Shown: one piece after another, positions 2,482 through 41,945 of the stretch
Layout: each line of letters opens with the position of its first letter
How positions within the stretch are numbered: the stretch's first letter is position 1
NCBI GenBank assembly: GCA_016181935.1
Contig: JACOYI010000002.1
Span: 63,961-127,960 of the forward strand
DNA length: 64,000 nt
Source: Candidatus Niyogibacteria bacterium
GTDB taxonomy: Bacteria; Patescibacteriota; Minisyncoccia; HO2-45-28
Reading direction: 5' to 3'
Notes under the pieces: model-generated
Databases searched by the model: none
What the model saw: the letters and a program-made list of their open reading frames with translations, nothing else
Told to the model about the DNA's origin: nothing
Position numbers and translations under genes: made by a program

Positions 2482-3759
2482 CTATACCGATTTGAGCGCC
2501 TTTCGCACAACTTCGCGGTCGTCCCATGCGGTGCGGGAGCCATGCGGACCCATGATCCACGGCTCGCATCCCTTGCCCGTGATGATGACGACATCTCCCG
2601 CTTTTGCGTCATGAATCGCGCGCTCGATTGCCGTGCCGCGATCTAAAATTTTCACCGCCTTCGTCCCCGCGCCGACGCCCGTTTCAATTTCAAGTAAGAT
2701 TTTTTGCGGGTCTTCATCGTAAGGGTCTTCGTTCGTCAAAATCACTTCCGAGCAAAATTCGGATGCGATCTTCCCGAATTCGGGGCGCTTCCATTTGTCT
2801 CTGCCGCCGCCCGCCGCACCGAGCACGCAAATCAATTTTTTGCCTTTGAGCGCCTCGTATACTTTGTGGAGTGCGTCAGGCGTATGTGCATAATCCACGA
2901 TGACCGCGAACGGCTCCTTCTGAATGTATTCCATCCGTCCCGCGACCACATCCACTTTTTCAATGCCGCGCTTGATCTCGTCCCAGCCAATATTCATCGC
3001 GCGCGCGAGCGCGACGGCCGCTGCGATGTTGGCGAGATTGAATGCGCCTACGAGTTTGGAGCGGATTTCCATCCCTTGCGGGGTCAGAATCCGCATCCCA
3101 TCGTCCTCGAACGCAACCTCGTATTCCTTTGCGGAGTAGGTGATTTTTTTGTCGGCGTCGTAGCGCAGGAACCGGTCGCGCGATGCGTCATCCGCATTCA
3201 CCACCATCACTTTCGGGATTTCGTTTTTGCGATAGGTTTTTGAAAGCAATTTAAAAAGTTTTTCCTTCGCTCGGCGATATTTTTCAAACGAGCCGTGCGA
3301 TTCGATGTGTTCGGGCGTCACGTTCGTGAGCACGAGCGCATCCCACGCGATGGCGCGGTGGCGCGATTGGCGGATGCCCTCGGAGGTCGCTTCGAGCACC
3401 GCATGCGTCGCGTGTTCGCGCTTGGCATCGCGCAAAAACTTCTGGAGCGCTCCGCGGCCGGGCATCGTCATTTTGAGCGTGTTCGGCCATTCCTTATCAC
3501 CGATTTTGAACCGCACGGACGACACGGACGCGACTTTGAACCCCGCCTCCTCCAAAATTTTCACGATGAGCTCCACGGTCGTGGATTTCCCATTCGTCCC
3601 CGTGACGCCGATCACCGTCATCCCCCGCGAGGGATGCCCGTACCAAGCGGCGGCGAGCGCCGAAAGCGCTCCGTGGTAAAACGGCTGGGCAAAACGGAAA
3701 AGGGGCGCGGGAATGACCGGCCGGATGAGATCCCGAACCCTTGACATAAATCCATTCAC
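2482..3759 (-). CDS. murE: Mur ligase family protein (MurE-like UDP-MurNAc-tripeptide synthetase)
   Basis: P-loop GVTGTNGKSTT, DYAHTPDAL motif and Mur ligase middle/C-terminal architecture. At 425 aa it is shorter than canonical MurE, which may be lineage-specific. Confidence 0.7.
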   Translation of the reverse strand: MNGFMSRVRDLIRPVIPAPLFRFAQPFYHGALSALAAAWYGHPSRGMTVIGVTGTNGKSTTVELIVKILEEAGFKVASVSSVRFKIGDKEWPNTLKMTMPGRGALQKFLRDAKREHATHAVLEATSEGIRQSRHRAIAWDALVLTNVTPEHIESHGSFEKYRRAKEKLFKLLSKTYRKNEIPKVMVVNADDASRDRFLRYDADKKITYSAKEYEVAFEDDGMRILTPQGMEIRSKLVGAFNLANIAAAVALARAMNIGWDEIKRGIEKVDVVAGRMEYIQKEPFAVIVDYAHTPDALHKVYEALKGKKLICVLGAAGGGRDKWKRPEFGKIASEFCSEVILTNEDPYDEDPQKILLEIETGVGAGTKAVKILDRGTAIERAIHDAKAGDVVIITGKGCEPWIMGPHGSRTAWDDREVVRKALKSV

Positions 3760-3822
3760 AGCGTAAAAATTAGCACAGCATTGGTTCGTTCACAATGAAA
3801 TGGCTCAAACCAAGGAGAAGCC

Positions 3823-4512
3823 ATGAAGCGACCGCTCACAATTCTTTTCGCGTTCGTGCTTATCGGATTTCCGATGACGGGGTTTGGGGATGGATATGCG
3901 CCGAAAGGTCCGTGGCGCGTAGTGGTGGCGGAACGAATTTCCTACGACGATTTGGGAAATTGGGAATACGAAGTGCCCGCGGAACTATGCGAGGAGGTCA
4001 TCCAGACAAACGTGCTGGAAAATTACCGTCGATGGTCTCATTCCTACGGTCCGTATGGCCCCTACACCGGAAGTTACAAATCATTTGCCGATTTTCTTTC
4101 GGACAAGATCTGGGGCCTCGACTATGATCATCTTCAAAGTCAAAATAGTCGGTATTACCACGTGGAAATGGTGGTGATCCTTGAAAACGCCGTGGTCAAT
4201 TCCGAGACCACCACCATCACATTGCCCATCGCCAATCCGGAAGAAGACGCGGAGATCCATCTATCGGTTTACTACGATGACCGGCGGTTTCCGATGCGGC
4301 TCGACATTACGGAAGGGGAGGTCCGTGGCGATGCTGCTTCCTCATCGACAGAAGCAAACCTGCTTGTCTGGGCGACCATGGAACAAAAGCCGGTCCTCAT
4401 TAAGGGGGTCGTTCGCATTCCCGAGAGCTACAACGGCATGGTCGAGCTCTTGGACGACATCCGCCATTCCCAGATCAAAATCTGCGCCGTAAGCGCGGTT
4501 TATTCCGAGTAG
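3823..4512 (+). CDS. Hypothetical secreted protein
   Basis: N-terminal signal peptide (MKRPLTILFAFVLIGFPMTGFG). An RBS-like GGAGAAGCC lies upstream. No recognizable domain. Confidence 0.5.
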   Translation: MKRPLTILFAFVLIGFPMTGFGDGYAPKGPWRVVVAERISYDDLGNWEYEVPAELCEEVIQTNVLENYRRWSHSYGPYGPYTGSYKSFADFLSDKIWGLDYDHLQSQNSRYYHVEMVVILENAVVNSETTTITLPIANPEEDAEIHLSVYYDDRRFPMRLDITEGEVRGDAASSSTEANLLVWATMEQKPVLIKGVVRIPESYNGMVELLDDIRHSQIKICAVSAVYSE

Positions 4513-4523
4513 CGCGACAGCTG

Positions 4524-4553
4524 AGGACGTAAGTCCTCGGCTTTTTTATTTTG
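4524..4553 (+). terminator. Rho-independent terminator
   Basis: GAGGAC-GTAA-GTCCTC hairpin followed by GGCTTTTTTATTTT. Confidence 0.6.
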
Positions 4554-4573
4554 ATAACACTGCGAGGGCGGCT

Positions 4574-4822
4574 TTAATAGGCCTTGCTCCGATGTTTTAT
4601 TCTATAAATTTTCACTTCCCTCCGCTTGTCGTCGATTTCGTAAATAACACGCAAATCGCCGATCCGAATCCGCCACGCATTCGGAGACCCGTGTAATTTC
4701 TTAGCGTTTGCGCGCGGGTTGTCGCGTAATTTCAAACAATAACGAATAACCCTCGAGCGCATCGACTTCTCGAGGGCATTCAAATCGCGCTCCGCGCGCC
4801 GCTCGATCAAAACTTTATACAC
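4574..4822 (-). CDS. Type II toxin, RelE/ParE family
   Basis: 82 aa basic protein (…KKLHGSPNAWRIRIGDLRVIYEIDD…) with RelE/ParE-like architecture. It overlaps the upstream antitoxin ORF by 8 nt. Confidence 0.65.
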   Translation of the reverse strand: MYKVLIERRAERDLNALEKSMRSRVIRYCLKLRDNPRANAKKLHGSPNAWRIRIGDLRVIYEIDDKRREVKIYRIKHRSKAY

Positions 4823-5027
4823 GCTCCCGGAGATACTCGCCTAGCGCGCGAAAAGAGGTTTTACCTCTCCGAATGCGGTGCAATTCCTGAAGGTCGCTTT
4901 TTTCTTCTGCCGCTCCTAACAACCGTTCATATTCTTTGATATCCAAAATGACGGATTTCGGCTTTCCGCCGCGAAGCACAATTTTAGGTTTTGCAATGAC
5001 ATTGGGCATAAACCAGTATGCTGGCAT
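4815..5027 (-). CDS. Type II antitoxin (Phd/YefM- or RelB-like)
   Basis: 70 aa ORF immediately upstream of and overlapping the RelE-like ORF. The KSVILDIKEYERLL segment resembles Phd/YefM antitoxins. Confidence 0.5.
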   Translation of the reverse strand: MPAYWFMPNVIAKPKIVLRGGKPKSVILDIKEYERLLGAAEEKSDLQELHRIRRGKTSFRALGEYLRERV

Positions 5028-5061
5028 TTCGACTAAAAATCAATCGTTTTTTAATTCCCGC

Positions 5062-5119
5062 CCACCGTCATCCCACGCGAGGGGTGGCCGTACCAATCCG
5101 CCAAGAGCTCGGCGAGAAG
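5062..5119 (-). pseudogene. Orphan duplicated fragment of the murE 5' coding end
   Basis: About 40 bp nearly identical to murE 3616-3659. On the minus strand it translates to LLAELLADWYGHPSRGMTVGGN*, compared with murE LSALAAAWYGHPSRGMTVIG. It is truncated by a stop and has no start. Confidence 0.55.
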
Positions 5120-5148
5120 GAGATGTGATGTCGATTTTAAAAACAAAA

Positions 5149-5439
5149 TCAAAAAGAATCGCTCCATCCTGTTGGCAAGGTCACTGGCGAAAGATTTATT
5201 GGGGGTTGAGGTAATACCGGAGTAGAAGGCGGCAACTTTGGTAATCTTGGGACCGGAGATACGGCAAACTGATTAAAGATGATGTATTTGCTGTTCCAAA
5301 TCTGGCCGCGAAAGTTTCCTCTCGAATCCCATACATAATTATTTTCAACCCACCCCCAATATTCGCCATCCCTCGAAAATAATGAGCCAGTAGAAATAAA
5401 GCCGATATAAACTCCGTTTGACTTAAAAATAAAATTCAT
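5149..5439 (-). CDS. Hypothetical small protein in a low-GC islet
   Basis: 96 aa ORF directly downstream of the protease gene on the same strand. It has a Pro-rich middle (PVPRLPKLPPSTPVLPQPP) and no homology I recognize. Confidence 0.3.
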   Translation of the reverse strand: MNFIFKSNGVYIGFISTGSLFSRDGEYWGWVENNYVWDSRGNFRGQIWNSKYIIFNQFAVSPVPRLPKLPPSTPVLPQPPINLSPVTLPTGWSDSF

Positions 5440-5446
5440 ATTGCTT

Positions 5447-6151
5447 TTATTTTTTACTTAACTCCGAATTTTCGGGTAATTCTGAAATTTCTTTGTGCTC
5501 TGGTATATAAGAGGCAGGTACGGCATAGCCAACACCCAACTGCATATTTTTCGTCAACGCCTGATACATTTCCACAAGATCAATACCGTGCAATGAAATT
5601 GCGCCGAGCGACATTTTTTCAACCTTGCTTAAAAGATCGGAGCGCTCTCGTCGAGTTGCATTCACTACCCCAATAACCTCGCCATGGGAGTTCATAAGCG
5701 GACAACCACTATTCCCAGGATTTACTGTTCCATCAATAAGATAAGTTGTAGTTCCAACGGCATCCTTTGTAATCGCTGACAAAATACCTTGATGGGTTGT
5801 CAGAGTTTCCAAATTGAGAGGAAATCCCGAAAAAATAACGGGTACTCCCGGTTTAATTTTTTCTCTTGCCCCAATTGGCAAAATAGACCGATCTCCGCTT
5901 TCTAATTTTAACAAGGCTAAATCGTGTTCGGAGTCGCGTATTGCAACTTTTGCGGCTATAAAATTTTCATCATCAGAAAATCGACACAATAACGACTGAC
6001 TGCCTTCGATAACATGATCACAGGTCACAAGAATCCCTTTTTTTGAAAACAAAAATCCGGATCCGGTGCTATCGACCTTATTTTTGGCATTGAGACAATA
6101 TATTTTAGCAATGCTCGGTGTAATTTTTTCGACTATATTCGCGTAATCCAT
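5447..6151 (-). CDS. Trypsin-like serine peptidase (S1 family, HtrA-like core without a PDZ domain)
   Basis: Catalytic triad context TCDHVI (His), DLALLKL (Asp) and GNSGCPL (Ser). Local GC is markedly lower than the flanking DNA. Confidence 0.7.
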   Translation of the reverse strand: MDYANIVEKITPSIAKIYCLNAKNKVDSTGSGFLFSKKGILVTCDHVIEGSQSLLCRFSDDENFIAAKVAIRDSEHDLALLKLESGDRSILPIGAREKIKPGVPVIFSGFPLNLETLTTHQGILSAITKDAVGTTTYLIDGTVNPGNSGCPLMNSHGEVIGVVNATRRERSDLLSKVEKMSLGAISLHGIDLVEMYQALTKNMQLGVGYAVPASYIPEHKEISELPENSELSKK

Positions 6152-6194: not shown

Positions 6195-6761
6195 CTACCT
6201 CCCCAACACTGCGAGAGCGGCTTTGATGCGGGCTTCGGCGCCTACGACATCCGACGACACTTTCGCGAGCGCATCTCTAGCTTCACGCAAAGAATACCCC
6301 AGTGCAGCGAGCGCTTCAAGCGCGTCCTCCTCATGGCGGAACTCGTCGGACGCCATCGTTTTGCCCATTTTTTCGCGAAGTTCAATGATGATTTTCTCCG
6401 CGGTTTTCCTCCCGATGCCAGATACCTTCGTGAGATAGCTCGTCTCCCCTCCCGCGATGGCTTTTTTCAACATATCGAGCGATGCCACGCCGAGCACGGA
6501 GAGGGCTGTGCGCGGCCCCACGCCCGATACGCTGTTCAACAAATCGAACAGATCAAGCTCGCCGTAGGTCAAAAACCCATACAATTCCTGCGCGTCCTCC
6601 CGCTGGCGGTGTGCCGTGTAGATTTTGACGGTGTCCCTGTTGTGTGGTATGGTTCGGAGCGTTTCGGGTCCTACGAACACTTTGTAGCCCACGCCGCCCG
6701 CCTCCAATATCAGGAAGCGCTCTCCTCGGAAGACGATTTTACCCTCCAAGCTGGCTATCAT
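6195..6761 (-). CDS. ruvA: Holliday junction DNA helicase RuvA
   Basis: N-terminal OB fold (MIASLEGKIVF...GVGYKVFV), HhH motifs and a C-terminal RuvB-interaction domain. Confidence 0.85.
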   Translation of the reverse strand: MIASLEGKIVFRGERFLILEAGGVGYKVFVGPETLRTIPHNRDTVKIYTAHRQREDAQELYGFLTYGELDLFDLLNSVSGVGPRTALSVLGVASLDMLKKAIAGGETSYLTKVSGIGRKTAEKIIIELREKMGKTMASDEFRHEEDALEALAALGYSLREARDALAKVSSDVVGAEARIKAALAVLGR

Positions 6762-6863: not shown

Positions 6864-8852
6864 ATGAACCGATTTAAACTCCACTCACCCTACCAGCCGA
6901 CCGGAGACCAGCCCGCCGCCATCGAAAAGCTCGCGGCGGGTATTCGCGCGGGCAAAAAGCACCAAACACTCTTGGGCGTGACGGGCTCCGGTAAGACCTT
7001 CACAATGGCCAATGTCATCGAGAAGCTCAATCGCCCTGCGCTCGTCATTTCGCATAACAAAACGCTCGCCCTCCAGCTGTATCAGGAGTTCAAGGAATTT
7101 TTCCCACTAAACGGCGTCCACTATTTCGTCTCGTATTACGACTACTACCAGCCCGAGGCCTACCTCCCCACCACCGACACCTATATCGAAAAAGACGCGA
7201 AAATCAACGACTTCATCGACCGCCTGCGCCACGCGACCACCGCCTCCGCGCTCACGCGGCGCGATTTTGTGATTTGCGCATCCGTGTCCTGCATTTACGG
7301 CTTGGGCGATCCGGAGGAATACGAAAATGTCGCGCTCGAATTGCGCGTCGGGCAAACGATGAAACGAAAGGATTTAACCGAGCGCCTCGCCGACCTGTAT
7401 TACGAACGCAATGACACCGAATCGCCTGCCTCGCCGTTTGGCGGGCGCTACGGCACCTTCAGCGCCAAAGGTGATGTGATTTCCATTGCGTCCCCCGACG
7501 GCGCCACCATCACCGAAATTGAACTCCTTGGCGACAAAATCGACGCGATGCGGGAATACAAAAACGACATCCACCGCTCGGGTGAACGCGCCATTGAATC
7601 CAAACACTTCTTCCCCGCCAAACATTTCGTCACGCCGAAGGATAAATTGAAAGTCGCGATGGCGAATATCCGCACCGAGCTCGCCACGCGCCTCACCGCG
7701 CTCAAAAAAGCGGGCAAAATCCTCGAGGCCGCGCGGTTGGAACAGCGCGTGAATTTTGACCTCGAAATGCTCGAGACCACGGGCTATGTGTCGGGCATCG
7801 AAAATTATTCGCGCCAGTTGTCGTTCCGCAACGCGGGCGAGCCGCCGTTCACATTATTGGATTATCTCCCCGACGATACGCTCGTCATCATCGACGAATC
7901 CCACATGACCGTCCCGCAGATCGGCGGAATGTACGCGGGCGACCAAGCGCGCAAAAATGTTCTTGTGGATTACGGGTTCCGTTTGCCCTCTGCGCTCGAC
8001 AACCGGCCGCTCAAATTCGCGGAGTTCGATGAAAAAGCGGGACAGCGCGTGTATGTGTCCGCCACGCCCGCGCAGTATGAAATTGACGCGTCAGGTCCGG
8101 ATGGAATCGCGGAACAGCTCATCCGCCCCACCGGACTCCTCGACCCCGTCATCGAAATCCGCCCCGCGCGAAATCAATTAAAAGATGTGGAACAGGAAAT
8201 CGCAAAATGCGTCGCCGCGGGCGAGCGCGCGCTCGTCGTGACGCTCACCAAGCGCCTCGCCGAGGATATCGCCGCGCATTTCAAGGACGCCGGCATCAAA
8301 GCCGAATACATGCACTCGGAAATCAAAACGCTTGAGCGCGGCAAAATTTTGGAAAAATTGCGCCGCGGCGAAATTGACGTCCTCATCGGCATCAACCTGC
8401 TCCGCGAAGGGCTCGATTTGCCGGAAGTGGCGCTCATCGCCATTCTCGACGCGGACAAAGAAGGATTTTTGCGCAATGAAACTTCATTGATTCAAACCAT
8501 CGGCCGCGGCGCGCGCCATCCGAAAGGCCGCGCGATTCTCTATGCCGATATTGTGACGGGCTCGATACAGCGCGCGCTCGATGAAACCAACCGTCGCCGC
8601 AAAATTCAGGAGGACTATAACCGCGAGCACGGCATCACGCCGACCGCGGTCATCAAGCCCATCCGCGCACCGTTGTTGGAAGAGGAAAAAGACAAGCGCG
8701 ACCCCGTCGGCGCGCTCGTGAAAGATTTGTACGAAACGCTTAAGGACCATGACGCGGTCAAAGCCGAACTCGAACGTCAAATGCTCATCGCCGCCGACGA
8801 ACTCCGCTTCGAAGACGCCGCGCGATTGCGGGATGTGCTGGGAACGCTATAA
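6864..8852 (+). CDS. uvrB: Excinuclease ABC subunit B
   Basis: 662 aa with Walker A GVTGSGKT, helicase motifs and the C-terminal UvrB/UvrC interaction helix (...ADELRFEDAARLRDVLGTL). Confidence 0.95.
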   Translation: MNRFKLHSPYQPTGDQPAAIEKLAAGIRAGKKHQTLLGVTGSGKTFTMANVIEKLNRPALVISHNKTLALQLYQEFKEFFPLNGVHYFVSYYDYYQPEAYLPTTDTYIEKDAKINDFIDRLRHATTASALTRRDFVICASVSCIYGLGDPEEYENVALELRVGQTMKRKDLTERLADLYYERNDTESPASPFGGRYGTFSAKGDVISIASPDGATITEIELLGDKIDAMREYKNDIHRSGERAIESKHFFPAKHFVTPKDKLKVAMANIRTELATRLTALKKAGKILEAARLEQRVNFDLEMLETTGYVSGIENYSRQLSFRNAGEPPFTLLDYLPDDTLVIIDESHMTVPQIGGMYAGDQARKNVLVDYGFRLPSALDNRPLKFAEFDEKAGQRVYVSATPAQYEIDASGPDGIAEQLIRPTGLLDPVIEIRPARNQLKDVEQEIAKCVAAGERALVVTLTKRLAEDIAAHFKDAGIKAEYMHSEIKTLERGKILEKLRRGEIDVLIGINLLREGLDLPEVALIAILDADKEGFLRNETSLIQTIGRGARHPKGRAILYADIVTGSIQRALDETNRRRKIQEDYNREHGITPTAVIKPIRAPLLEEEKDKRDPVGALVKDLYETLKDHDAVKAELERQMLIAADELRFEDAARLRDVLGTL

Positions 8853-8940
8853 TCCCGCCGCCAGCTTGACAATCCATCTCATCTTTGGTATTCACAAACA
8901 AGCAGCTCGTTAAAAATCGCCACGGAATAAGGAGATAAGC

Positions 8941-9513
8941 GTGGACCGGCAAAAAGCCCAAGAGATCGTGGATGCGGCTATTCGGTTGCCGCTGTCGGAA
9001 CTTCTATATACGGCGGAGGAGATCGAGGAGGCGGTCCGAGCGAACACGACGGAAGTTTTCAATCGAATTCCGGAAATTGAAAATGCGCAAAAAGAATACA
9101 GGGAATCACTTCTTCGCGAGGCAACAATACAGCACAAAATAAAGAGGCTTTTGCTACGGGCAGGATTTCGCCCCTATAACGGCTGGACTCTAAATGGTCT
9201 GGAAGTGATGTGTACCAAGACCGCGAGCGTAGGCGAAGACCCCAGATACGACAAACCAAAACACATAGCAATCGTAAGGCCGAGGCGCTTTGTTACAAGA
9301 CCTCGGGATAAATGGATTGGATTGATTCATCTCTCCGAAAAATCGAATGAAATTCTTATAGAAATATTCGGGTCAAGAAATATTGCCGCGATCGCCGATA
9401 TATCAGAAAAAATCAGGCAGCAAATGAACCTTTCGGTTCGTTGTGATCTGGTGCTGAGAAAAGAGAAGGAGCTCGATGGAGATTGGATTGATGTTTGTAA
9501 AACAGGCCCCTAA
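8941..9513 (+). CDS. Hypothetical protein, paralog A (shares an N-terminal ~40 aa module with the 10706 gene)
   Basis: GTG start after an AGGAGA RBS. The N-terminus MDRQKAQEIVDAAIRLPLSELLYTAEEIEEAVRANTTEVF is about 85% identical at the DNA level to the start of 10706..11050. The remainder is low-GC. Confidence 0.5.
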   Translation: MDRQKAQEIVDAAIRLPLSELLYTAEEIEEAVRANTTEVFNRIPEIENAQKEYRESLLREATIQHKIKRLLLRAGFRPYNGWTLNGLEVMCTKTASVGEDPRYDKPKHIAIVRPRRFVTRPRDKWIGLIHLSEKSNEILIEIFGSRNIAAIADISEKIRQQMNLSVRCDLVLRKEKELDGDWIDVCKTGP

Positions 9514-9540: not shown

Positions 9541-9834
9541 ATGAAAAAAGCTCTAAAATGGGCGACGATTTTCTTTGTTGCGGCAACGTTTTCGATCTGG
9601 CTTGCCGGATTCGTTGATCCACAGATCAGCGATTTCTACTCGCGTCATATAACAAAATTCGGTTTCCTGTTTAAATTCGAACTCTACGGCACGCGCCGTG
9701 ACGGCCGCGGGAAAGCAAAAGCGCAAAAATCACTACACCGCCGGAAGAACGATCGCCAGCATACGCCCTCTCACGATAGAGAGGGTATTTTTATTGGGCG
9801 ACACCGAAACATCGCACGCGCGCTTGACACATAG
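9541..9834 (+). CDS. Hypothetical small membrane protein
   Basis: 97 aa with one TM (WATIFFVAATFSIWLAGFV) between paralog A and pspA. Weak evidence. Confidence 0.25.
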   Translation: MKKALKWATIFFVAATFSIWLAGFVDPQISDFYSRHITKFGFLFKFELYGTRRDGRGKAKAQKSLHRRKNDRQHTPSHDREGIFIGRHRNIARALDT

Positions 9835-9975
9835 CGAGCCAATATGTTATTCAAGCGGTGTCCCTTAAAAACCATTCGGTCCAACCTTCCTAAAAGGAGT
9901 GCAGACGTGCTTACCACCATTCTGGTCATCGCCGGTCTCGCCCTATTCTTGGGCAGTACGTATCGGACCCGATTC

Positions 9976-10695
9976 ATGCGAGTCGTGCGTTCGCATATCG
10001 GCGCCTTGATACGCCGGGCGGAAAATCCGGAGAAAATGATCGAGCATGCGTTGACAGAGATGACCGGCGCCTATCACCAAGCGCGAGAGCAAACGGCGCT
10101 TGCGATCGCCGCACAGAAGAAGATGGCGCGCCAGCTCGAGGAAGAGCAAACCGAAACCCAGCGCTGGATGGAGCGGGCGCGTCTGGCTGTGAACAAAAAT
10201 GATGACGACCTGGCCCGCGAAGCGCTCCGGCGCAAGCAGGAACATGCGACCGTGGCCCTGCAAATCGAGAGCCAACTTGTGCATTACAGCGCCCACGTCG
10301 AAAGCTTGAAGAGCGCGCTGGACGATCTCGAGCGAAAGATCGAGGAAGCGAGGCGGCGGAAAAATCTTCTCGTCGCGAAACAACGGCGAGCCGAGGCGCA
10401 GGATCGGATCTACGCCACCATGAACGGCATCCAGAACGAAGGCGGCCTCGAGCTGATCGAACGGATGGAACAGAAGATCGATGAAATATGCGATGCCGCG
10501 GATGCGCGCATCGATCTGAAATCCGAAAAAGAAAAACTGGAGATCCGATTCCAGCAGCTCGAATCCGTGGATGTCGAAACGGAACTCTCCCTGCTCAAGA
10601 ACCGGCGCGCGATCGAGTACAAGCCGGTGGAATCGCCCGTTCCCGAGCTCGACATGATTCGGGAAAAGTCGCCGCTCGCGGTAAAGCCCGCCTAA
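9976..10695 (+). CDS. pspA: PspA/IM30 family protein
   Basis: Starts ...RRAENPEKMIEHALTEM, the canonical PspA N-terminus, and has a long coiled coil. The ORF could extend upstream to 9844 with an added TM segment, but the canonical start fits 9976. Confidence 0.75.
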   Translation: MRVVRSHIGALIRRAENPEKMIEHALTEMTGAYHQAREQTALAIAAQKKMARQLEEEQTETQRWMERARLAVNKNDDDLAREALRRKQEHATVALQIESQLVHYSAHVESLKSALDDLERKIEEARRRKNLLVAKQRRAEAQDRIYATMNGIQNEGGLELIERMEQKIDEICDAADARIDLKSEKEKLEIRFQQLESVDVETELSLLKNRRAIEYKPVESPVPELDMIREKSPLAVKPA

Positions 10696-10705
10696 GGAGA
10701 CCCTG

Positions 10706-11050
10706 ATGGACCTGCAAAAAGCCCAAGAGATTGTGGATGCGTGCGTCACGCTTCCGTTGTCGGAACTTCCGTATACGGCGGAGGAGATCGAGGCGGCGGT
10801 ACGAACAAACGCAACCAACAGTATCACCCGGAATACGCCGAAGAAAATAGGAGTTTTTGAATCCATGTTGGCACATATAATGCCAAAATTTCCGAAAATA
10901 TTTTTAGTCTGCGGTTTATTGGCCGGTTTCGGAGCTTTTTTGTCGCCAATCTCACCGCTCTTTTTTCTCGCGTTTGCTTTACCATACGTAGGGCTCATGG
11001 TGACAGTCATACTTCTTGGAATCTGTGAGGAAATGCTGCGCTGGTGGTAA
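10706..11050 (+). CDS. Hypothetical membrane protein, paralog B (shared N-terminal module)
   Basis: N-terminus MDLQKAQEIVDACVTLPLSELPYTAEEIEAAVRTN followed by 2-3 TM helices. It sits immediately after pspA and is a possible PspA membrane partner. Confidence 0.5.
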   Translation: MDLQKAQEIVDACVTLPLSELPYTAEEIEAAVRTNATNSITRNTPKKIGVFESMLAHIMPKFPKIFLVCGLLAGFGAFLSPISPLFFLAFALPYVGLMVTVILLGICEEMLRWW

Positions 11051-11123: not shown

Positions 11124-11168
11124 TTCGGCCTCGAGGACGCCGCGCGGTTGAGGAATGTGCTGGGGACG
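11124..11168 (+). pseudogene. Orphan duplicated fragment of the uvrB 3' end
   Basis: Translates to EDAARLRNVLGTL*, compared with uvrB C-terminus EDAARLRDVLGTL*. It is about 85% identical to 8808-8852 and has no upstream ORF. Confidence 0.55.
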
Positions 11169-11184
11169 CTGTAAAAAAAGAAAA

Positions 11185-11219
11185 ACCGCCAAGCCGTTTT
11201 TTATTTTTGGCTTGGCGGT
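11185..11219. terminator. Stem-loop terminator after the orphan uvrB tail
   Basis: ACCGCCAAGCC-(T-rich loop)-GGCTTGGCGGT with an upstream A-tract. This is probably the ancestral uvrB terminator. The U-tract geometry fits minus-strand or bidirectional use. Confidence 0.45.
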
Positions 11220-13562: not shown

Positions 13563-15962
13563 TTAGACGATCTTTTTTAATTCCGCCCAGTTCGGGCCCG
13601 CGCTCACCTCCACCGCGAGCGGAATATCGTCTTTGTAAACGCCTTCCATTTCCTGCTTAATGAGCGTCGCCGCCTCTTTTACGGCAGAATCCTCGATCTC
13701 GAACAAGAGTTCGTCGTGGATCTGCAGAACCATCCGCACTTTTTTACCAAGCCCCGCTTTCGCGAGCGCCGGATGCAGTCGTACCATCGCTTTTTTTATC
13801 ATATCCGCCGCACTCCCCTGAATGGGCGCATTGATGGCCATGCGCAGATATTCGTGATGCATGTATTCGGGCATGGTCTGCAATTCCGGAAAATACCGCC
13901 GCCGCCCGAAAAGCGTGGTCGTATATCCGTTTTCGGCCGCCTCGCGCTTCACCTCCTCGATATATTCTTTCACGCGCCCAAAATCGTGGAAATATTTATC
14001 ATAGAATTCGCGCGCCTTTTCCTGCGTCACACCCAAGCTCTCGGCAAGCGCGCGTACGCCCATACCGTACAAAATCCCGAAATTGATGGTCTTGGCGGCA
14101 TAGCGCATATCCTTGGTAACGTTTTTGATATCGACATGGAACATCGCGGCGGCGGTTGCCGTATGAATATCGCGCCCCGCGAGAAACGCCTCTTTCAGAA
14201 TCGGATCATCCGACAAAATCGCGGCGATGCGCAATTCGATCTGCGAATAATCCGCGGCAACGAGTGTCCAACCAATAGGGGCGACAAATGCCTTGCGGAC
14301 CTCGCGACCGAGCTCGGTTCGGATGGGAATATTTTGCAGATTCGGATTCTCGGACGAAAAACGGCCGGTCACGGTCCCCGCCTGATTGAGCGTCGTGTGC
14401 ACCCGTCCTTCCGCATCCGCAAGCGCGGGAAGCGCATCGATATAGGTGGATTTCAGTTTTGCGAGCTCGCGGTATTGCAATATCAGCTCCACAATCGGAT
14501 GCGCGCTCTTCAGTTTTTCAAGCTCTGAGGCATTCGTCGAGAGCGCGCCCTTGCCGGTTTTGCGGATGCCTTTCGCGCTCAACTTCAATTGATTGAACAA
14601 AATATCGGACAATTGCTTGGGCGAATTGATGGTGAATTCCGTCCCTGCGAGTTCCCAGATCTTTTTCTCGAGCTCCGCGATTTTCTTTTCGTAGATTTTC
14701 GACATCCCTCCGAGATAGTCGCGATCGATCATCGTGCCGGCGCGGTGCATCTCATCCAAAATACCGATGAGCGGCAATTCGGTTTTTTCAAAAAATTCCA
14801 GCAGGCCTTCTTTTGCGAGTTCCGCGCGAAAATGCCCGAGCGCCGCCTCCGGTGTACTCGCCCCGGCGATGCGCATCGCTTCGTCCGGCGCGATGCCGAC
14901 GCGCCGCGAATCGAGGAGCCATGCCGCAACGGCAAGCTCCCGCGCAATTTTAGGATCATGCGCTTCCGAAGGCGCGAATAATTCCTGTGTTCCGCTTTCC
15001 GGCCTGCCCGCCGACCCGCGCTCCGCCGTAGGCTCTGGCGAGGCGAGAGCTCCAGCGAAGGAGGGCAAACGTGCGATCAAACTCGTGAATCCAAGCGCGC
15101 GAAAAAGCGGCTCGACAGCGCCGCGCTCGAATTGCTTCCACTCGGCGTCTTTTAGATCGAATTCGACGGGCGCGTCGCGGCGGATGGTGCTAAGTGTTTT
15201 GGAAAATAGTGCATCCTCCGATCTCTCGCGGAGCAATCCCGCCATCCGGTCTTTGATGCCCGCCGCCTTCAGTTTTTCCGGTTTTGTTTTCGCGAGCTTT
15301 ACAATATCCTCCACCGAACCGAATTTTTGAACGAGGATTTCCGCGGTTTTTTCGCCAATGCCCTTCACCCCCGGAATGTTGTCCGACGGGTCGCCGCGCA
15401 ACCCTTTGTAATCCGGCAATAATTCGGGGCCGAATCCGAACCGTTCGCGCACCGCTTTTTCATCATAAATAAAACTTTCGTTCCCCTTTTTGAGCGTCCA
15501 GACGCGCACGCGCGTCGAATCCACCAATTGCAATGCATCGAGGTCGCCCGATGCGATGATGATGGAAAGATTTTTCTCTTTTTTCAGCTTTTCAACGATG
15601 GTGCCGACGATGTCATCCGCCTCGAATCCGGCCTTTTCCAGCAACGGAATATGGAATGTTTCGACGATCTCGCGCGAACGCGCGAATTGTGAAATGAGCG
15701 CGGGTTCGGCCTCCGGCCGCTGGGCTTTGTATTTTTCGTAAGCCGCATGGCGGAACGTGGGCTCCGGAAGATCGTTCGCCGCGACCAAATAGTCGGGTTT
15801 GAATTCCTTCGCGATGCGAAGGATCGTCGTCGTCAATCCGTAGAGCGCGCCGGTCGGCTCGCCCGACGGCGACGTGAACGGCGGCAATGCGTGATACGCG
15901 CGATGTAGGATCGCGTGCAGATCGAGAATGACGAGCGTTTTGTTTTTAGATTTAGAACTCAT
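13563..15962 (-). CDS. polA: DNA polymerase I
   Basis: 799 aa with an N-terminal 5'-3' exonuclease/FEN domain and C-terminal family A polymerase motifs (…RRYAAKTINFGILYGMG…, QIHDELLFE). Confidence 0.95.
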   Translation of the reverse strand: MSSKSKNKTLVILDLHAILHRAYHALPPFTSPSGEPTGALYGLTTTILRIAKEFKPDYLVAANDLPEPTFRHAAYEKYKAQRPEAEPALISQFARSREIVETFHIPLLEKAGFEADDIVGTIVEKLKKEKNLSIIIASGDLDALQLVDSTRVRVWTLKKGNESFIYDEKAVRERFGFGPELLPDYKGLRGDPSDNIPGVKGIGEKTAEILVQKFGSVEDIVKLAKTKPEKLKAAGIKDRMAGLLRERSEDALFSKTLSTIRRDAPVEFDLKDAEWKQFERGAVEPLFRALGFTSLIARLPSFAGALASPEPTAERGSAGRPESGTQELFAPSEAHDPKIARELAVAAWLLDSRRVGIAPDEAMRIAGASTPEAALGHFRAELAKEGLLEFFEKTELPLIGILDEMHRAGTMIDRDYLGGMSKIYEKKIAELEKKIWELAGTEFTINSPKQLSDILFNQLKLSAKGIRKTGKGALSTNASELEKLKSAHPIVELILQYRELAKLKSTYIDALPALADAEGRVHTTLNQAGTVTGRFSSENPNLQNIPIRTELGREVRKAFVAPIGWTLVAADYSQIELRIAAILSDDPILKEAFLAGRDIHTATAAAMFHVDIKNVTKDMRYAAKTINFGILYGMGVRALAESLGVTQEKAREFYDKYFHDFGRVKEYIEEVKREAAENGYTTTLFGRRRYFPELQTMPEYMHHEYLRMAINAPIQGSAADMIKKAMVRLHPALAKAGLGKKVRMVLQIHDELLFEIEDSAVKEAATLIKQEMEGVYKDDIPLAVEVSAGPNWAELKKIV

Positions 15963-16078
15963 TTCAAAAATGTTATGAACCGAGCGCGTGCCGTTAAAAA
16001 GGGCTTTCGGAGCGCGACGGCGCGAGAACGAGCCGATTTTTCAGCAGAAGCGGCATGCGGGAGGGTAATTTTTGAAAT
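15955..16078. repeat. IR-flanked intergenic repeat element, copy 1 (core shared with 35088-35150)
   Basis: 17-bp terminal inverted repeats GAACTCATTTCAAAAAT / ATTTTTGAAATGAGTTC. The core TCGGAGCGCGACGGCGCGAGA…GATTTTTCAGCAGAA…CGGCATGCG recurs at 35088-35150. Confidence 0.5.
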
Positions 16079-16083
16079 GAGTT

Positions 16084-16581
16084 CTAGATACCTTCAACAT
16101 GAATCGTGATGTCGCGTTCCGTATCCGAAATAAATTCAAAATGAATATCAAAATGGACCTTGGGCAATAATTTTTCGATGTTTTTCGCCCACTCGACGAG
16201 AATAACTGCGTGGCGGTCCTCTACCCATTCGTTCCAGCCCACGGTTTCGATCTCGCGCGCTCCGCCGGCTGGCGGACCAAGACGATACGCGTCCACATGA
16301 ATGAGTTTGGTGTATCCGCCGCGCGTAAACGCATAATTGCGCGCGATAAGAAAGGTGGGGCTCTGAACCGCATCGCGGATACCGAGTCCTTTCGCGAATC
16401 CCTGCACGAATGTAGTCTTGCCGCCGCCCAAGTCCCCCGAGAGCGCGACAACGAGCGCGTGGTCATGAAAAGAAACAGCCGCGAGGTCCTTGGCGAGAAG
16501 TCCGGCGATCCGCTGGGTTTCGCCGGCGCTTTTCGTTCGGAAACGCACTTGCCTCGCGGACGGGCGGGTGCGGCTGTCCAT
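16084..16581 (-). CDS. tsaE: tRNA t6A biosynthesis ATPase TsaE (YjeE)
   Basis: P-loop LSGDLGGGKTTFVQG and TsaE size and architecture. Confidence 0.8.
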   Translation of the reverse strand: MDSRTRPSARQVRFRTKSAGETQRIAGLLAKDLAAVSFHDHALVVALSGDLGGGKTTFVQGFAKGLGIRDAVQSPTFLIARNYAFTRGGYTKLIHVDAYRLGPPAGGAREIETVGWNEWVEDRHAVILVEWAKNIEKLLPKVHFDIHFEFISDTERDITIHVEGI

Positions 16582-19557: not shown

Positions 19558-19719
19558 ATGCGGGTTATGAAATCTATTTTAGAAACCCCGCAGGCGCTTT
19601 GCATGGTGTTTTTTGGCTATCATGTACGCGAAGCGAGCCAAAAAACAAAGCGCCAAGGACGGAGTCAGAACATCGCTGGATGTTCTGATGTGTTCTAAAA
19701 TAGATTTCATAACCCGCAT
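19558..19719. repeat. Intergenic element bounded by a 27-bp perfect inverted repeat
   Basis: ATGCGGGTTATGAAATCTATTTTAGAA … TTCTAAAATAGATTTCATAACCCGCAT flanks about 107 bp that contain an internal hairpin (CAGAACATC-GCTG-GATGTTCTG). Confidence 0.5.
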
Positions 19720-19724
19720 TAATC

Positions 19725-21398
19725 GTGGCGAAAAATAACGACATCGAAAAAAAGCTCGAAGAATTTCGCGCCAAAGAGGCGGAGGATTTCGCCGAACTCA
19801 TGGCGCAGAAATACGGCGTTCCGTATCTCGACCTGTCGCGCACCACGATCGACCTCGACGCCTTAAAACTCGTGAGCCAGCCGGATGCCGAAGCCGGCAA
19901 AATGGCGGTCTTTCAAAAAACCGCGCGTCGGCTGCGCGTCGGCGCTTTCAATCCGACGCTCCCGAAAGCCAAAGAGATCCTTGAGAGCCTTGAACGCAAG
20001 GGGTATCAACTAGAACTTTCCGTTGTTTCCGAACCGAGCCTGAAACGCGCATGGTCGCGCTACGCCGAAATAGCGGCATTCGAGGAAATGACCGCGGGCA
20101 CGCTCGATATTTCCGCCTCTCGGCTTGAGGAATCCATTGCCAAGATCAAAGCCATCGCGGATTTTCAAGAACTGATACTCCCGTTTACGGGAGCGTCCAA
20201 GATCAAGAACGTGAGCGAGGTGCTGGAGTTCATTCTTGCGGGCGCATTGGCGCTGGACGCGTCGGATGTTCACCTGGAACCGCAGGAAAAAGCGGTTGCC
20301 ATGCGATTTCGTCTGGACGGCGTCCTTTCCGAGGTCGCCACATTCACTGCCGCGGCCTATGCGCTCCTGTTATCGCGCGTCAAATTGACGGCGGGGATGA
20401 AGCTCAACGTGAAAGACCGCGCGCAGGACGGCCGTTTTACGATCCGCACGACGCAAACGGAGATCGAGGTTCGCGTCTCATCGCTCCCCGGCCCGTACGG
20501 CGAGACCATCGTGATGCGCGTGTTGAATCCGAAAACCATCGCGCTGACGCTCGAGGATCTCGGACTGCATCCCGAACTCCAAAAAATCGTTAAAAAAGAA
20601 TTGAAAAAGCCGAACGGCATGATCCTGACCACCGGTCCCACGGGTTCGGGAAAAACCACGACGCTCTACGCGTTCGTCAAAGCCGTGAACGAACCGGGCG
20701 TCAAGATCATCACCATCGAGGACCCCATCGAATATCACATCCCGGGCATCAGCCAAACGCAGGTGGACGCATCCAAAGGATATACGTTCGCGAACGGCCT
20801 GCGCAGTATCTTGCGCCAAGACCCCGACACGATCTTGGTGGGCGAGATCCGAGACCTCGAAACCGCCGAGATCGCGATGCATGCGGCGCTGACCGGCCAT
20901 TTGGTATTTTCGACGCTCCACACCAACAGTGCGGCGGGCACCATCCCGCGGCTCATTGACCTTAAGGCCGATCCCGCGATCATCGCGCCCGCCATCAATA
21001 TCGCGATGGCCCAGCGCCTCGTGCGCAGACTTTGTCCGCATTGCAAAAAAGAAACTGCGCCGACAGCAGACGAAAAAAAACTGATCGAGGATGCGCTCAA
21101 AAAAATGCCGTCCAAATACAAAAAAGACGTGAAAACCAAAGATCTTCGCGTTTGGAAAGCCGGAGGATGCCCAAAATGCAGCACATTGGGCTACAAGGGC
21201 CGGATCGGCATCTATGAGGCGTTTTTGGTGGACGACGCGGTGGAACGGCTGATTCTGAAAAAGCCGGCGGAAGGCGACCTGCGCGAAGCCATGGAACGCC
21301 AAGAAATGATGACCATGATGCAGGACGGCATTCTGAAGGCGCTTGATGGATTGACTTCGATGGATGAGCTGATCCGCGTGGCCGGTTTACCCACCTAA
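19725..21398 (+). CDS. pilB: Type IV pilus / type II secretion assembly ATPase (PilB/GspE family)
   Basis: GTG start. N-terminal GSPII_E_N domain, Walker A LTTGPTGSGKTTTLYA, Asp/His boxes and a C-terminal CxxC…CxxC zinc motif (CPHC…CPKC). Confidence 0.9.
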   Translation: MAKNNDIEKKLEEFRAKEAEDFAELMAQKYGVPYLDLSRTTIDLDALKLVSQPDAEAGKMAVFQKTARRLRVGAFNPTLPKAKEILESLERKGYQLELSVVSEPSLKRAWSRYAEIAAFEEMTAGTLDISASRLEESIAKIKAIADFQELILPFTGASKIKNVSEVLEFILAGALALDASDVHLEPQEKAVAMRFRLDGVLSEVATFTAAAYALLLSRVKLTAGMKLNVKDRAQDGRFTIRTTQTEIEVRVSSLPGPYGETIVMRVLNPKTIALTLEDLGLHPELQKIVKKELKKPNGMILTTGPTGSGKTTTLYAFVKAVNEPGVKIITIEDPIEYHIPGISQTQVDASKGYTFANGLRSILRQDPDTILVGEIRDLETAEIAMHAALTGHLVFSTLHTNSAAGTIPRLIDLKADPAIIAPAINIAMAQRLVRRLCPHCKKETAPTADEKKLIEDALKKMPSKYKKDVKTKDLRVWKAGGCPKCSTLGYKGRIGIYEAFLVDDAVERLILKKPAEGDLREAMERQEMMTMMQDGILKALDGLTSMDELIRVAGLPT

Positions 21399-21501
21399 AT
21401 TTTGGCGGGCGGGGAGATTTAAGCTGGAGAGCTGGAGACTGGATTGCTGGAGGCTGGATTTCCCAGATTCCGGCTCTCTAGTCTCTAGAGCTCCAAGATT
21501 A

Positions 21502-21670
21502 AACGTCTTGCTGTCTCTAGGCAATTGCTTGCGGCATGGGAACCGCAAGAATAAGACGTTCCTTTAGCAACGGCTGCGTTTGGTCCTCAACAGGGAAGGA
21601 ACCCAACCGCCCTGAAAGAACGTCCCGATGAGAATAAATTCCCTTAATTGCCTAGAGACAAAAAGACGTT
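21502..21670. ncRNA. Candidate structured RNA (long closing helix around a ~115-nt interior)
   Basis: AAACGTCTTGCTGTCTCTAGGCAATTG (21502-21529) is complementary to CAATTGCCTAGAGACAAAAAGACGTTT (21645-21670). Internal hairpins include CTTGCGG-CATGGGAA-CCGCAAG. The RNA class is undetermined. Confidence 0.25.
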
Positions 21671-21785
21671 TACCCGTCCGTAGTTTCGCGAAGTAAAACG
21701 AAGGAGGGTTTCCGTGCCAGATAATAGCAAAATAATGTTCGCCTGTCAAGCGCGCGTGAAAGCAAGTTCCGATACTCATTTAGTG

Positions 21786-24622: not shown

Positions 24623-25123
24623 ATGATCACGCTTCACGCCGACGAACGGGTCTTATGCGCTGTCCACCGTCATTGGATCGTGGTCGCGCAAAAAATGACC
24701 ATGGTGGTGTTTTTGCTTCTGGGTGCGCTTATATTTTTTTTGCTCCTGCCGTCCTTCAGCATTGGCCCCTCGCTTCTCCCCTTCATTTTTTATCTTTTCT
24801 TGATTTATCTTCTCATCGTCCTGCTCGTTGCCTTTGTTTTGTGGATGGACTACTATCTCGATGTTTGGATCGTGACAACGGAACGCGTCATCGACGTCGA
24901 ACAAATCGGCATGTTCCGCCGCGAAGCGTCTGAATTTCCGCTTTCAAACATTCAGGATGTCACGGTGGAAATCCCGGGGTTCATTGCAACGCTGTTACAT
25001 TACGGGACAATCCGGATCCAGACGGCAGGCAACCAGAGTTTTGTGGCGCATGAGATCCCGGATGTCGATCGCGTGAAAAACATCATTTTGGAGGAGGCGC
25101 GTAAACATCGAACTTTAAAATAA
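24623..25123 (+). CDS. Membrane-anchored bacterial PH domain (bPH_2/YdbT-like) protein
   Basis: Two TM helices followed by a domain resembling bPH_2/DUF304 (…YYLDVWIVTTERVIDVEQIGMFRREASEFPLSNIQDVTVEIPGFIATLLHYGTIRIQTAG…). Confidence 0.55.
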   Translation: MITLHADERVLCAVHRHWIVVAQKMTMVVFLLLGALIFFLLLPSFSIGPSLLPFIFYLFLIYLLIVLLVAFVLWMDYYLDVWIVTTERVIDVEQIGMFRREASEFPLSNIQDVTVEIPGFIATLLHYGTIRIQTAGNQSFVAHEIPDVDRVKNIILEEARKHRTLK

Positions 25124-25285
25124 TGTTGCTGCGATTGATTCTCGACACGCTCACCCCGCCCCGCGAGCAGGATTCGCTCTATCCTCGGCTCGCTCGTTTC
25201 GTTTAGCGCTTCGCGCAATTATAAACGAAACGCCGTGCCCGCTCGCCTGTGGACGGTCTCGAATTCAATCGCAGCAACATCATTT
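25124..25285. repeat. Inverted-repeat-bounded intergenic element with an internal hairpin
   Basis: AATGTTGCTGCGATTGATTCTCGAC … GTCTCGAATTCAATCGCAGCAACAT (about 25 bp IR). Internal hairpin CGTTTCGTTT…AAACGAAACG. Confidence 0.45.
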
Positions 25286-25439
25286 TAAGCGAAACGCGAA
25301 AATTAAAATAATAATCGCGAGCGGCGCCGAATTTGCTTCGCGCCGCGAGCACTAATGGATGGGGAGGCAGCGAGCGAAGCGAGCGTCGGAAGGGGAAACC
25401 CTTAAAGGCGCGAAGCGCGAGGGTTTCCCCTCCGAGATT

Positions 25440-35007: not shown

Positions 35008-35029
35008 CCGGCAGCTTATCAGCTAGAAC

Positions 35030-35170
35030 CCACCCCAAAACCGTTGATCGGAACGAGCGCATGCCGCGAGTAGGATTCTCGGAGCGCGACGGCGCGAGAG
35101 TAAGCAGATTTTTCAGCAGAAAAATACGGCATGCCTACTCGCGGCATGCGCGAGTGAGGTTTTGGGATGG
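35030..35170. repeat. IR-flanked intergenic repeat element, copy 2 (same core as 16005-16070)
   Basis: 19-bp perfect IR GCGCATGCCGCGAGTAGG … CCTACTCGCGGCATGCGC enclosing TCGGAGCGCGACGGCGCGAGA…GATTTTTCAGCAGAA. An outer CCCCAAAACC/GGTTTTGGG pairing is also present. Confidence 0.5.
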
Positions 35171-38069: not shown

Positions 38070-38482
38070 GATTTGCGGTTATCGTGAATGATCCAGAGAA
38101 CCATCAGCGTATAGGTGGGGATAAGATCGCCGAAGGGAATGATCTCTATAGCGCCCGTAAGACCCCAGAACGGCGGTCGGCGCAATCCTTGGGAATAGAC
38201 CCAAAGCAGGATGATCCCCCACGTGGCGCCATCCAGAATGTCGCCGACAACGGGAATGGAGCCGATAATAAAATAGTCCAGCGTATCGTTGATCATGGCG
38301 ACCGCGAGCACGAGGTTAGCGATGAACATGTTCATACTTACTTGGCGCGCGGGAGCGGTCTCGTCGCCGGCGTCTTCCGGTCCTTCTTCGGCCTCTTCTT
38401 CATTTGCGAGCTTCGCTTGCCGCGCTTGGGCAAGCTCGAAGGCGCGCATCTCTTCGTCGATCGCTATCGTTCCGTTTGGCAT
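38066..38482 (-). CDS. Hypothetical membrane protein
   Basis: 138 aa with an acidic N-terminus and 3 predicted TM helices. Overlapping stop/start junctions tie it into the operon. Confidence 0.4.
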   Translation of the reverse strand: MPNGTIAIDEEMRAFELAQARQAKLANEEEAEEGPEDAGDETAPARQVSMNMFIANLVLAVAMINDTLDYFIIGSIPVVGDILDGATWGIILLWVYSQGLRRPPFWGLTGAIEIIPFGDLIPTYTLMVLWIIHDNRKS

Positions 38483-38485
38483 GGT

Positions 38486-40306: not shown

Positions 40307-40311
40307 AACGA

Positions 40312-40959: not shown

Positions 40960-40962
40960 ACC

Positions 40963-41927: not shown

Positions 41928-41945
41928 GGTTATTTCATTATATCG

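Follow-up and report, generated by a model that had tools for sequence, protein, structure and literature searches.

A displaced murE 5' fragment at the ruvA-murE junction of a Candidatus Niyogibacteria genome, probably a scar of host-mediated recombination

The 64,000-nucleotide stretch analysed here (the window) belongs to a Candidatus Niyogibacteria bacterium (assembly GCA_016181935.1, contig JACOYI010000002.1, positions 63,961 to 127,960). Upstream of its functional murE gene, which encodes a Mur ligase, the window carries a second, truncated copy of the murE 5' coding end. With a probability of about 0.6, this orphan fragment was left by host-mediated recombination at the junction between ruvA and murE, a hotspot of insertion, and does not represent the end of a self-mobile cassette. 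The locus consists of two unlike ruvA-3'-to-murE-5' intervals in tandem, which are joined through a toxin-antitoxin (TA) pair of the Phd-ParE type.

The orphan murE 5' end and the tandem intervals

The orphan was detected by a repeat search as a direct repeat of 51 nt (3608-3658 inside murE and 5058-5108) with 80% identity and a spacing of 1450 nt. The core of the repeat (3613-3646 and 5063-5096) is 91% identical over 34 nt in blastn-short. Local alignment of the 5' 200 nt of murE with the 2.4-kb upstream spacer gives a score of 53, which is reached by none of 500 dinucleotide shuffles (21.1 ± 2.3, maximum 31, z = 14). The similarity, which an original prediction made from the sequence alone had described as an orphan copy of the murE 5' coding end, is thus real and far beyond chance. 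However, at 80-91% identity the copies are not nearly identical, as had been claimed, and the spans given for them (5062-5100 and 3616-3659, 39 versus 44 nt) were slightly off; the end of the orphan lies 1.3 kb, instead of 1.4 kb, upstream of the murE start codon ATG 3747.

The window copy 5058-5108 reads ...SHLLLAELLADWYGHPSRGMTVGGN followed by a stop, and minus-strand translation of the upstream copy gives ...MERFFLILFLKSTSHLLLAELLADWYGHPSRGMTVGGN with the stop codon at 5051-5053, which bears out the predicted WYGHPSRGMTV ahead of a premature stop. This peptide corresponds exactly to MurE residues 38-48, numbered from GTG 3759. Compared with the murE 5' end of L161 (GCA_016177385.1), which together with the Logan contig L162 represents the close relatives of the window, the orphan grows to 68 nt (5058-5125; 84%, E = 1e-14). 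Its reading frame terminates three codons past ..MTV, ahead of the P-loop, and because it comprises neither P-loop nor ligase domains the orphan is non-functional as MurE. It matches the functional murE 5' ends of L161 and L162 (YHLLLAEL..WYG.PSR.MTV) and is probably a dead remnant of an alternative 5' allele of murE.

Two other origins were considered and rejected. Decay of a Mur-ligase paralogue is at odds with the match to the relatives' murE 5' end, and the conserved upstream neighbour is ruvA, not a ligase; within 162 MurE-bearing loci from species-representative genomes and metagenomes no second Mur ligase is present upstream of murE. Programmed switching of the MurE 5' end in the style of silent cassettes is implausible in a cytoplasmic ligase, and no data support it. 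When second copies of the murE 5' end were sought by self-blastn in 80 GTDB-representative loci only noise was obtained, indicating that the orphans are confined to the clade of the window.

The features of the locus are given below in coordinate order; of the two murE start alleles, one is referred to as c-type and the other as f-type.

2482..3747, minus strand: functional murE, Mur ligase with the Pfam domains Mur_ligase_M and Mur_ligase_C
3608..3658, minus strand: repeat copy within functional murE, codons ~34-50, AAAWYGHPSRGMTVIG (repeat search, alignments)
3659..3747, minus strand: c-type murE N-terminal coding segment, MSRVRDLIRPVIPAPLFRFAQPFYHGALSAL, the canonical Paceibacteria form as in more distant relatives
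3748..3822, no strand: divergent promoter region between murE and sec229, conserved in L161 and partly in L162
3823..4512, plus strand: sec229, a 229-aa protein of no known family with a signal-peptide-like N-terminus by eye
4519..4542, no strand: bidirectional intrinsic terminator (terminator scan), the ancestral terminator of ruvA, also terminating sec229
4556..4578, minus strand: orphan of the ruvA 3' end (..KAALAV..), 21/23 nt identical to the ruvA tail at 6205-6227
4574..4822, minus strand: toxin of the ParE/RelE family, 82 aa (PF05016, E = 3e-10, 40.9 bits against a cut-off of 23)
4815..5027, minus strand: Phd/YefM-like antitoxin, 70 aa (PF02604, 24.7 bits, below the cut-off of 29.8)
5051..5125, minus strand: orphan murE 5' fragment of the f-type allele, SHLLLAELLADWYGHPSRGMTV, then GGN and the stop at 5051-5053 (repeat, translation, L161 match)
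5149..5439, minus strand: gene for a small protein of the Bflower family (PF21784, E = 1e-10)
5447..6151, minus strand: trypsin-like serine peptidase gene (PF13365, E = 1e-23), within the DNA inserted between ruvA and the murE orphan
6195..6761, minus strand: ruvA, 97% and 95% identical at the amino acid level to RuvA of L161 and L162, which carry Pfam RuvA domains

The second displaced gene end, the ruvA-tail orphan AAAGCCGCCCTCGCAGTGTT (4578-4556, minus strand), is located directly after the ParE stop codon and exceeds all of 500 shuffles (z = 8). It runs uninterrupted into the terminator at 4519..4542, which can be aligned both to L161 8590-8630 and to the terminator that immediately follows ruvA in L162; window positions 4578-4534 and L162 934-981 share 81% identity. 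The joint TAA/AGCC between toxin gene and ruvA tail overlaps AAAGCC of ruvA, a stretch too short for statistics.

Read in the orientation of murE, the order is therefore ruvA with its tail, the trypsin-like gene, the Bflower gene, the murE 5' orphan, Phd-ParE, the ruvA-tail orphan, the terminator, sec229 on the opposite strand, the divergent promoter and murE. Because a ruvA-tail orphan stands between the TA pair and sec229, the repeats are interleaved (ruvA tail, murE 5', ruvA tail, murE 5') and are not simple brackets around a cargo. The first version of the interval comprises the ruvA tail, the trypsin-like gene, the Bflower gene and an f-type murE start that is cut after ..MTV, and the second comprises the ruvA-tail orphan, the ancestral terminator, sec229, the promoter and a c-type start running into murE.

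The product of the functional gene is 100% identical to NCBI protein P0001 of a Candidatus Niyogibacteria metagenome-assembled genome (MAG), a protein of 421 aa starting at ATG 3747. An in-frame GTG at 3759 is a possible alternative start; exact-sequence look-ups with MurE from this GTG start and with ParE, sec229 and UvrB returned no match. Within murE the repeat immediately precedes the P-loop GVTGTNGKST.

Alleles and layouts in the two close relatives

Contig scans with MurE reached top identities of 62% in genomes and 57% in metagenomes; nearer relatives were obtained via protein search only, and L161 and L162 are the only two close ones. MurE, RuvA and UvrB of L161 are 86%, 97% and 96% identical to those of the window, respectively, and the amino acid identities to L162 are 90% for MurE and 95% for RuvA.

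The functional MurE proteins of both relatives begin with the f-type sequence, M(NFLRAL)YHLLLAELAAAWYGHPSRRMTV.. in L161 and M(KFLLQPFLT)MYHLLLAELAAIWYRNPSRGMTV.. in L162. Hence the f-type start is functional in the relatives and the c-type start in the window, and the first codons of the c-type are orphaned in both relatives. Homology between the murE genes of the window and of L161 and L162 starts at position 3658, the upstream edge of the repeat, and the c-type segment 3659..3747 is not homologous at the DNA level to the equivalent stretch of L161 or L162 murE. Upstream of 3658 the c- and f-type starts are ~48% identical, a value from a hand codon count without tool output, as compared with ~86% for the gene body. 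Unlike starts on a similar gene body indicate that the murE 5' end of one lineage was replaced, with the breakpoint at the repeat edge. Either direction of this replacement needs an equal number of events.

In L161 the order is ruvA, a gene for 152 aa, an f-type orphan, an antitoxin with a ParE-like toxin, the terminator, sec229, the promoter, the first 7 murE codons, HicB-HicA and murE. Of the c-type start, the first 22 nt (GTGAATGGATTTATGTCAAGGG) are retained, followed by HicB-HicA with a promoter of its own; the f-type murE starts 17 nt after HicA (region 9756-10001). The L161 orphan (8095-8135) is shorter than that of the window and identical to its own murE in 22/22 nt. Its left flank is a Bflower remnant, and that of the window orphan is the 3' end of the Bflower gene; this common flank is equalled by 1/1000 shuffles locally and by 8/1000 over the whole spacer. 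Given an orthologous orphan with an orthologous left flank, the scar would predate the species split, and the window orphan is probably older than the separation from the L161 lineage.

L162 displays a different arrangement, in which ruvA, the terminator, a gene for 239 aa, the promoter and the first ~6 c-type murE codons are followed by Phd-ParE, a murE orphan, a second TA pair and murE. The murE orphan measures 23-26 nt (..SRGMTVIG) and is identical to its own murE in 22/23 nt. Homology of the TA cassette passes the ParE stop codon by 12 nt, which align with the ruvA-tail orphan of the window, and then switches to murE at a shared CCYTCGC. The sequence of this joint, GACCGCCTTCGC/GGGGGATG (also GACCGCCTTCGC/GGGGGATGACGG), suggests a microhomology join, CCYTCGC being common to the ruvA tail and murE and too short for statistics. 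The f-type murE of L162 begins 2 nt after the stop codon of the ParE-like toxin of the second TA pair (2795-2802).

The breakpoints fall after MTV in the window and after MTVIG in L162, and HicBA and Phd-ParE in L161 and L162 follow codons 3-6, counted from ATG 3747. Each relative thus combines different TA pairs (HicBA, a second ParE pair, the same Phd-ParE) with different breakpoints in the same 150 nt of murE. In L161 and L162 the essential murE apparently forms the final gene of a TA operon, its new start codon having arisen at the joint.

These layouts bear on two further explanations. In-situ tandem duplication from the ruvA tail to murE codon ~50, after which the inner genes of one copy would have diverged, been lost or been replaced and the TA pair would have entered at the joint, predicts exactly the interleaved order and would agree with the identity of the L161 orphan to its own murE. 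It is nevertheless rather unlikely: the inner contents, trypsin-like and Bflower genes versus terminator and sec229, are unrelated, and the murE starts, only about half identical upstream of codon 34 by the hand count against ~86% for the gene body between species, look like alleles of different lineages. Several additional replacement steps would also be required. The structure likewise resembles tandem haplotypes of one interval, and the source is a MAG, as would be expected if the contig were a chimeric join of two strain haplotypes. Such an assembly artefact is hardly credible, however, since L161, an independent MAG, agrees with the window in overall layout and possesses an orthologous orphan, and the independent contig L162 has orphans of its own. 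Moreover, an assembler is unlikely to be misled by repeats that are short and 80-91% identical.

Toxin-antitoxin pair and resident sec229 block

The genes between the two orphans agree with the predicted RelE-like toxin and overlapping Phd-type antitoxin. Like type II ParE/RelE-Phd/YefM modules they form a two-gene operon, in which the antitoxin comes first and overlaps the toxin start by 8 nt, with a ParE_toxin Pfam match. Unlike in typical modules, the antitoxin scores below the Pfam cut-off, a promoter of its own is seemingly missing and activity is a prediction. The partners of homologous toxins in three other loci (L163, L166 and L168) carry PF02604.

No sigma-70-like promoter for the pair was detected in the promoter scan; the pair appears to lack one because the TTGATT-17-TAGCAT promoter present in L162 is truncated here. 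The predicted TA pair is probably expressed by read-through transcription from the ruvA operon, which would be stopped by the old ruvA terminator. A leader reading frame (MERFF...GGN and stop, 38 codons, 5051-5167), or a transcript element coupling the TA pair to the ruvA operon, could in principle be the reason why the orphan was retained. The frame, open over 69 codons, contains an ATG, the antitoxin begins just ~24 nt downstream, and the missing promoter would fit. Yet the counterpart in L161 is cut far shorter and precedes a cassette that has a promoter of its own, L162 has no counterpart of this orphan, and there is no sign of constraint beyond descent, which makes a retained function very improbable.

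The pair has relatives elsewhere: L162 contains a 90% identical ParE copy at a different junction, with an antitoxin of 54% identity to that of the window, and ParE relatives of 60-74% identity occur in other Paceibacteria between unrelated core genes, for instance next to dnaJ or between htrA and clpB. This distribution supports mobility of the Phd-ParE pair on an evolutionary time scale. Neither the segment nor ParE gave a match in searches for a phage, plasmid or viral origin. None of the 162 loci used for comparison has the trypsin-like gene between ruvA and murE.

On the Paceibacteria contig L166, a 90-nt direct repeat (90%, 920-1008 and 2081-2170), which spans a toxin gene's 3' end together with the adjacent downstream flank, was observed on either side of an inserted 101-aa reading frame and Phd-ParE, the same pattern of a gene end around a TA pair.

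Between the ruvA-tail orphan and murE, the block 4551-3738 (sec229, the promoter and the first murE codons) is 86% identical at the nucleotide level to L161 8600-9420 and has the same relative place there. The promoter and the first ~7 murE codons are kept in 22/22 nt in L161 and, in part, in 19/20 nt in L162. Since sec229 and the promoter are in place in L161, they are resident and not cargo. The N-terminus of sec229 resembles a Sec-type signal peptide by eye (MKRPLTILFAFVLIGFPMTGFG/DG). The protein has no Pfam match, its AlphaFold2 model is unusable (predicted local distance difference test score, pLDDT, 37), and among 5.8 billion protein clusters only two proteins were found, sec229 itself and its L161 homologue (78%). 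The supposition that the segment holds typical mobile-cassette content therefore applies to the evolutionarily mobile TA pair but not to sec229, a lineage-restricted resident. Inspection of the region upstream of murE in the relatives did reveal other TA inserts, whereas the sec229 block, expected to be absent, is in place in L161.

The two murE copies, which had been thought to delimit a discrete cassette, could have been produced by a miniature integrative cassette that is mobilised in trans by a site-specific recombinase, uses the 51-nt murE sequence as attachment (att) site and carries a replacement gene end. Direct repeats do bracket TA-containing DNA, the uvrB tail (described below) and the ruvA tail offer two parallel cases in the window, three genomes have insertions that recur within ~150 nt at the 5' end of murE, and an Xer-like tyrosine recombinase (61457-62368; Phage_integrase and SAM_1) is encoded in the window. 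This enzyme is, however, the sole recombinase in the scanned 64 kb and is located 56 kb away. Pfam scans, which covered the long open reading frames across the window short of an exhaustive gene call, revealed no integrase or transposase in or beside the segment. The breakpoints differ among the window, L161 and L162, and the cassette ends of the three genomes share neither a common core nor an inverted repeat. Furthermore, the bracketed DNA includes sec229 and its promoter, which are in place in L161, the murE repeats are interleaved with the ruvA-tail pair, and copies of only 80% identity with a scar common to L161 do not point to recent mobility. An att-bounded cassette is for these reasons quite unlikely. 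Integration at a tRNA gene was rejected, as tRNA and Rfam scans gave nothing at the repeats and the only tRNA gene found is a tRNA-Arg at 63655.

Recombination at the ruvA-murE junction and related structures

In 102 of the 162 loci ruvA lies upstream of murE in the same orientation. The gap between both genes is at most 104 nt, often an overlap, in ~65 of these 102 and 0.3-7 kb in the rest; in the window it amounts to 2.4 kb. Because the genes abut in most loci and are separated by inserts in the others, the junction is ancestral and represents a recurrent insertion point in Paceibacteria. The order conserved across loci comprises holA, rpsT and uvrB on one strand and ruvA and murE on the other. 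In the three closely related genomes the inserts contain TA pairs, a peptidase, the Bflower protein and orphan reading frames (ORFans), and are devoid of mobility genes.

Host-mediated recombination at this hotspot, the simplest explanation, would have taken the following course. DNA of a sibling lineage would be taken up, probably by natural transformation, and RecA-type homologous recombination with an anchor in murE or ruvA would integrate it, while its other end would be joined illegitimately, by homology-facilitated illegitimate recombination (HFIR) or an equivalent unequal exchange. Only products with intact murE and ruvA would survive, and since any event that keeps both genes intact survives, the displaced gene end could persist as a scar. 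TA pairs may accumulate as they resist loss, and the first ~45 MurE codons, upstream of the P-loop, would tolerate rewriting. The window encodes a PilB-type ATPase (19725-21398), RuvABC and other recombination and repair genes. HFIR in transformable bacteria relies on a one-sided anchor and 3-10 bp of microhomology (PMC6382021), and Patescibacteria are reported to be competent in general and to carry comEC/pili together with recombination genes (PMC12455944).

Several points weigh against this interpretation. The searched collections hold only three genomes of the clade, too few to reconstruct in which order and direction the events took place. The TA pair is flanked by at least two novel junctions, which calls for multiple illegitimate events or for a pre-formed donor structure. 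The microhomologies of 4-9 nt are merely suggestive, and the test of the left flank of the TA pair gave 13/1000. Insertions in the same ~150 nt of murE in three genomes could also mean a sequence-specific mechanism instead of tolerance. Natural transformation is inferred for this organism, and sliding-window identity of murE and ruvA in the three close genomes gave no clear break that would mark a donor segment.

A bolder and distinctly doubtful reading would regard the TA pairs of these Niyogibacteria as recombinase-free 'knock-in' cassettes, which use ruvA 3' and murE 5' scraps as homology arms, repeatedly enter the dispensable first ~45 codons of the essential murE and supply a new start codon or gene end. 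If this were true, murE would be the downstream gene of a TA operon, as in L161 (17 nt after HicA) and L162 (2 nt after the toxin), and loss of the cassette would harm cell-wall synthesis.

Host-mediated recombination has counterparts in several known systems. As in the minimal mobile elements of Neisseria (Saunders and Snyder 2002, as cited in PMC1538595), different whole-gene cassettes lie between two conserved genes, here ruvA and murE, without mobility genes. The exchange in Neisseria is attributed to transformation and homologous recombination in the flanks, of which transformation would have to be presumed for the window. Here, by contrast, the joins lie inside the flanking coding ends and leave displaced fragments, and the host is an uncultured Patescibacterium. 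With HFIR (de Vries and Wackernagel in 2002, Prudhomme in 2002, Meier and Wackernagel in 2003, in the summary of PMC6382021) the proposed course shares a one-sided homologous anchor and a microhomology join that insert foreign DNA, which would explain an intact hybrid gene beside a truncated resident end. HFIR was, however, defined experimentally, whereas here only end products are observed, with short, uncertain microhomologies and a need for two or more joins.

Integrase islands and prophages that carry a replacement gene end also duplicate their att site, so that the acquired DNA is enclosed by direct repeats of a gene end while the target remains intact. Unlike in these elements, the window has no integrase at the segment, the breakpoints are variable, the repeats are interleaved and the bracketed DNA is partly resident. 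Displaced gene ends are also known from rhs and cdiA loci, where incoming DNA recombines via a conserved stretch, provides a new gene end and displaces the old one as a promoterless fragment, giving rise to arrays of relics. The orphans of the window would be comparable relics, but those of rhs and cdiA are 3' toxin tips with immunity genes that serve competition, as opposed to ends of housekeeping genes (murE 5', ruvA 3', uvrB 3') with type II TA pairs and small ORFans as cargo.

The locus is a well-resolved, tidy example of a known and ordinary kind of genome dynamics. It illustrates at the level of single bases how streamlined Patescibacteria with ultra-small genomes acquire and swap small accessory genes without dedicated mobile-element machinery, with insertions that cluster at core-gene junctions, cut gene ends and leave the displaced ends as datable scars. 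Independent TA insertions in the 5' end of murE, an essential cell-wall gene, in three genomes suggest that the N-terminal ~45 residues of MurE are expendable, and the pattern suggests that addiction modules accumulate where their removal is risky. For annotation, caution is advisable, as short gene-end duplications in MAGs may be neither att sites nor assembly errors.

The parallel drawn with a duplicated uvrB tail was confirmed. The last 50 nt (16 codons) of uvrB, 8803-8852, recur 2.3 kb further on at 11125-11174 with 84% identity (z = 16), and both copies end in TAA. The functional tail is followed by a promoter-like site seen by eye, TTGACA-17-TATTCA, and by 2.3 kb of accessory genes. The uvrB-tail orphan is situated directly before a strong hairpin terminator (~11181-11215) and the rpsT promoter region, which corresponds to the uvrB end in relatives; by the same logic it marks the ancestral position. 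Nested in this repeat is a 123-nt direct repeat (8928-9050 and 10693-10815, 79-86%), which gives reading frames of 190 aa (8941-9513) and 114 aa (10706-11050) the same first ~37 residues and different remainders. Its copies flank a PspA/IM30 gene (9844-10695).

Further observations concern other parts of the window. The Xer-like recombinase gene and the only tRNA gene, tRNA-Arg TCG (63655-63727), are 1.3 kb apart. Adjoining the replication-origin genes dnaA and dnaN (30.5-33.3 kb), a type IV secretion-like cluster (36425-46776) encodes a pilin-like protein, a TrbL/VirB6-like protein of 787 aa and a TSP3-repeat protein; its VirB4/TraC-like ATPase is apparently split into the overlapping frames 38486-40462 and 40312-40959. 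Two intergenic sites, at 15950-16089 between polA and tsaE and at ~35020-35170 after yidC, share a 50-nt core with 86% identity (AGGNNTYTCGGAGCGCGACGGCGCGAGA...TTTTTCAGCAGAA), each within its own long inverted repeat. The core, which matches nothing in Rfam, is perhaps a small structured RNA or else a miniature repeat element. Finally, three intergenic pairs of near-perfect inverted repeats of 24-27 nt, 108-126 nt apart and mutually unrelated, are located at 19558-19719, 21500-21672 and 25115-25288.

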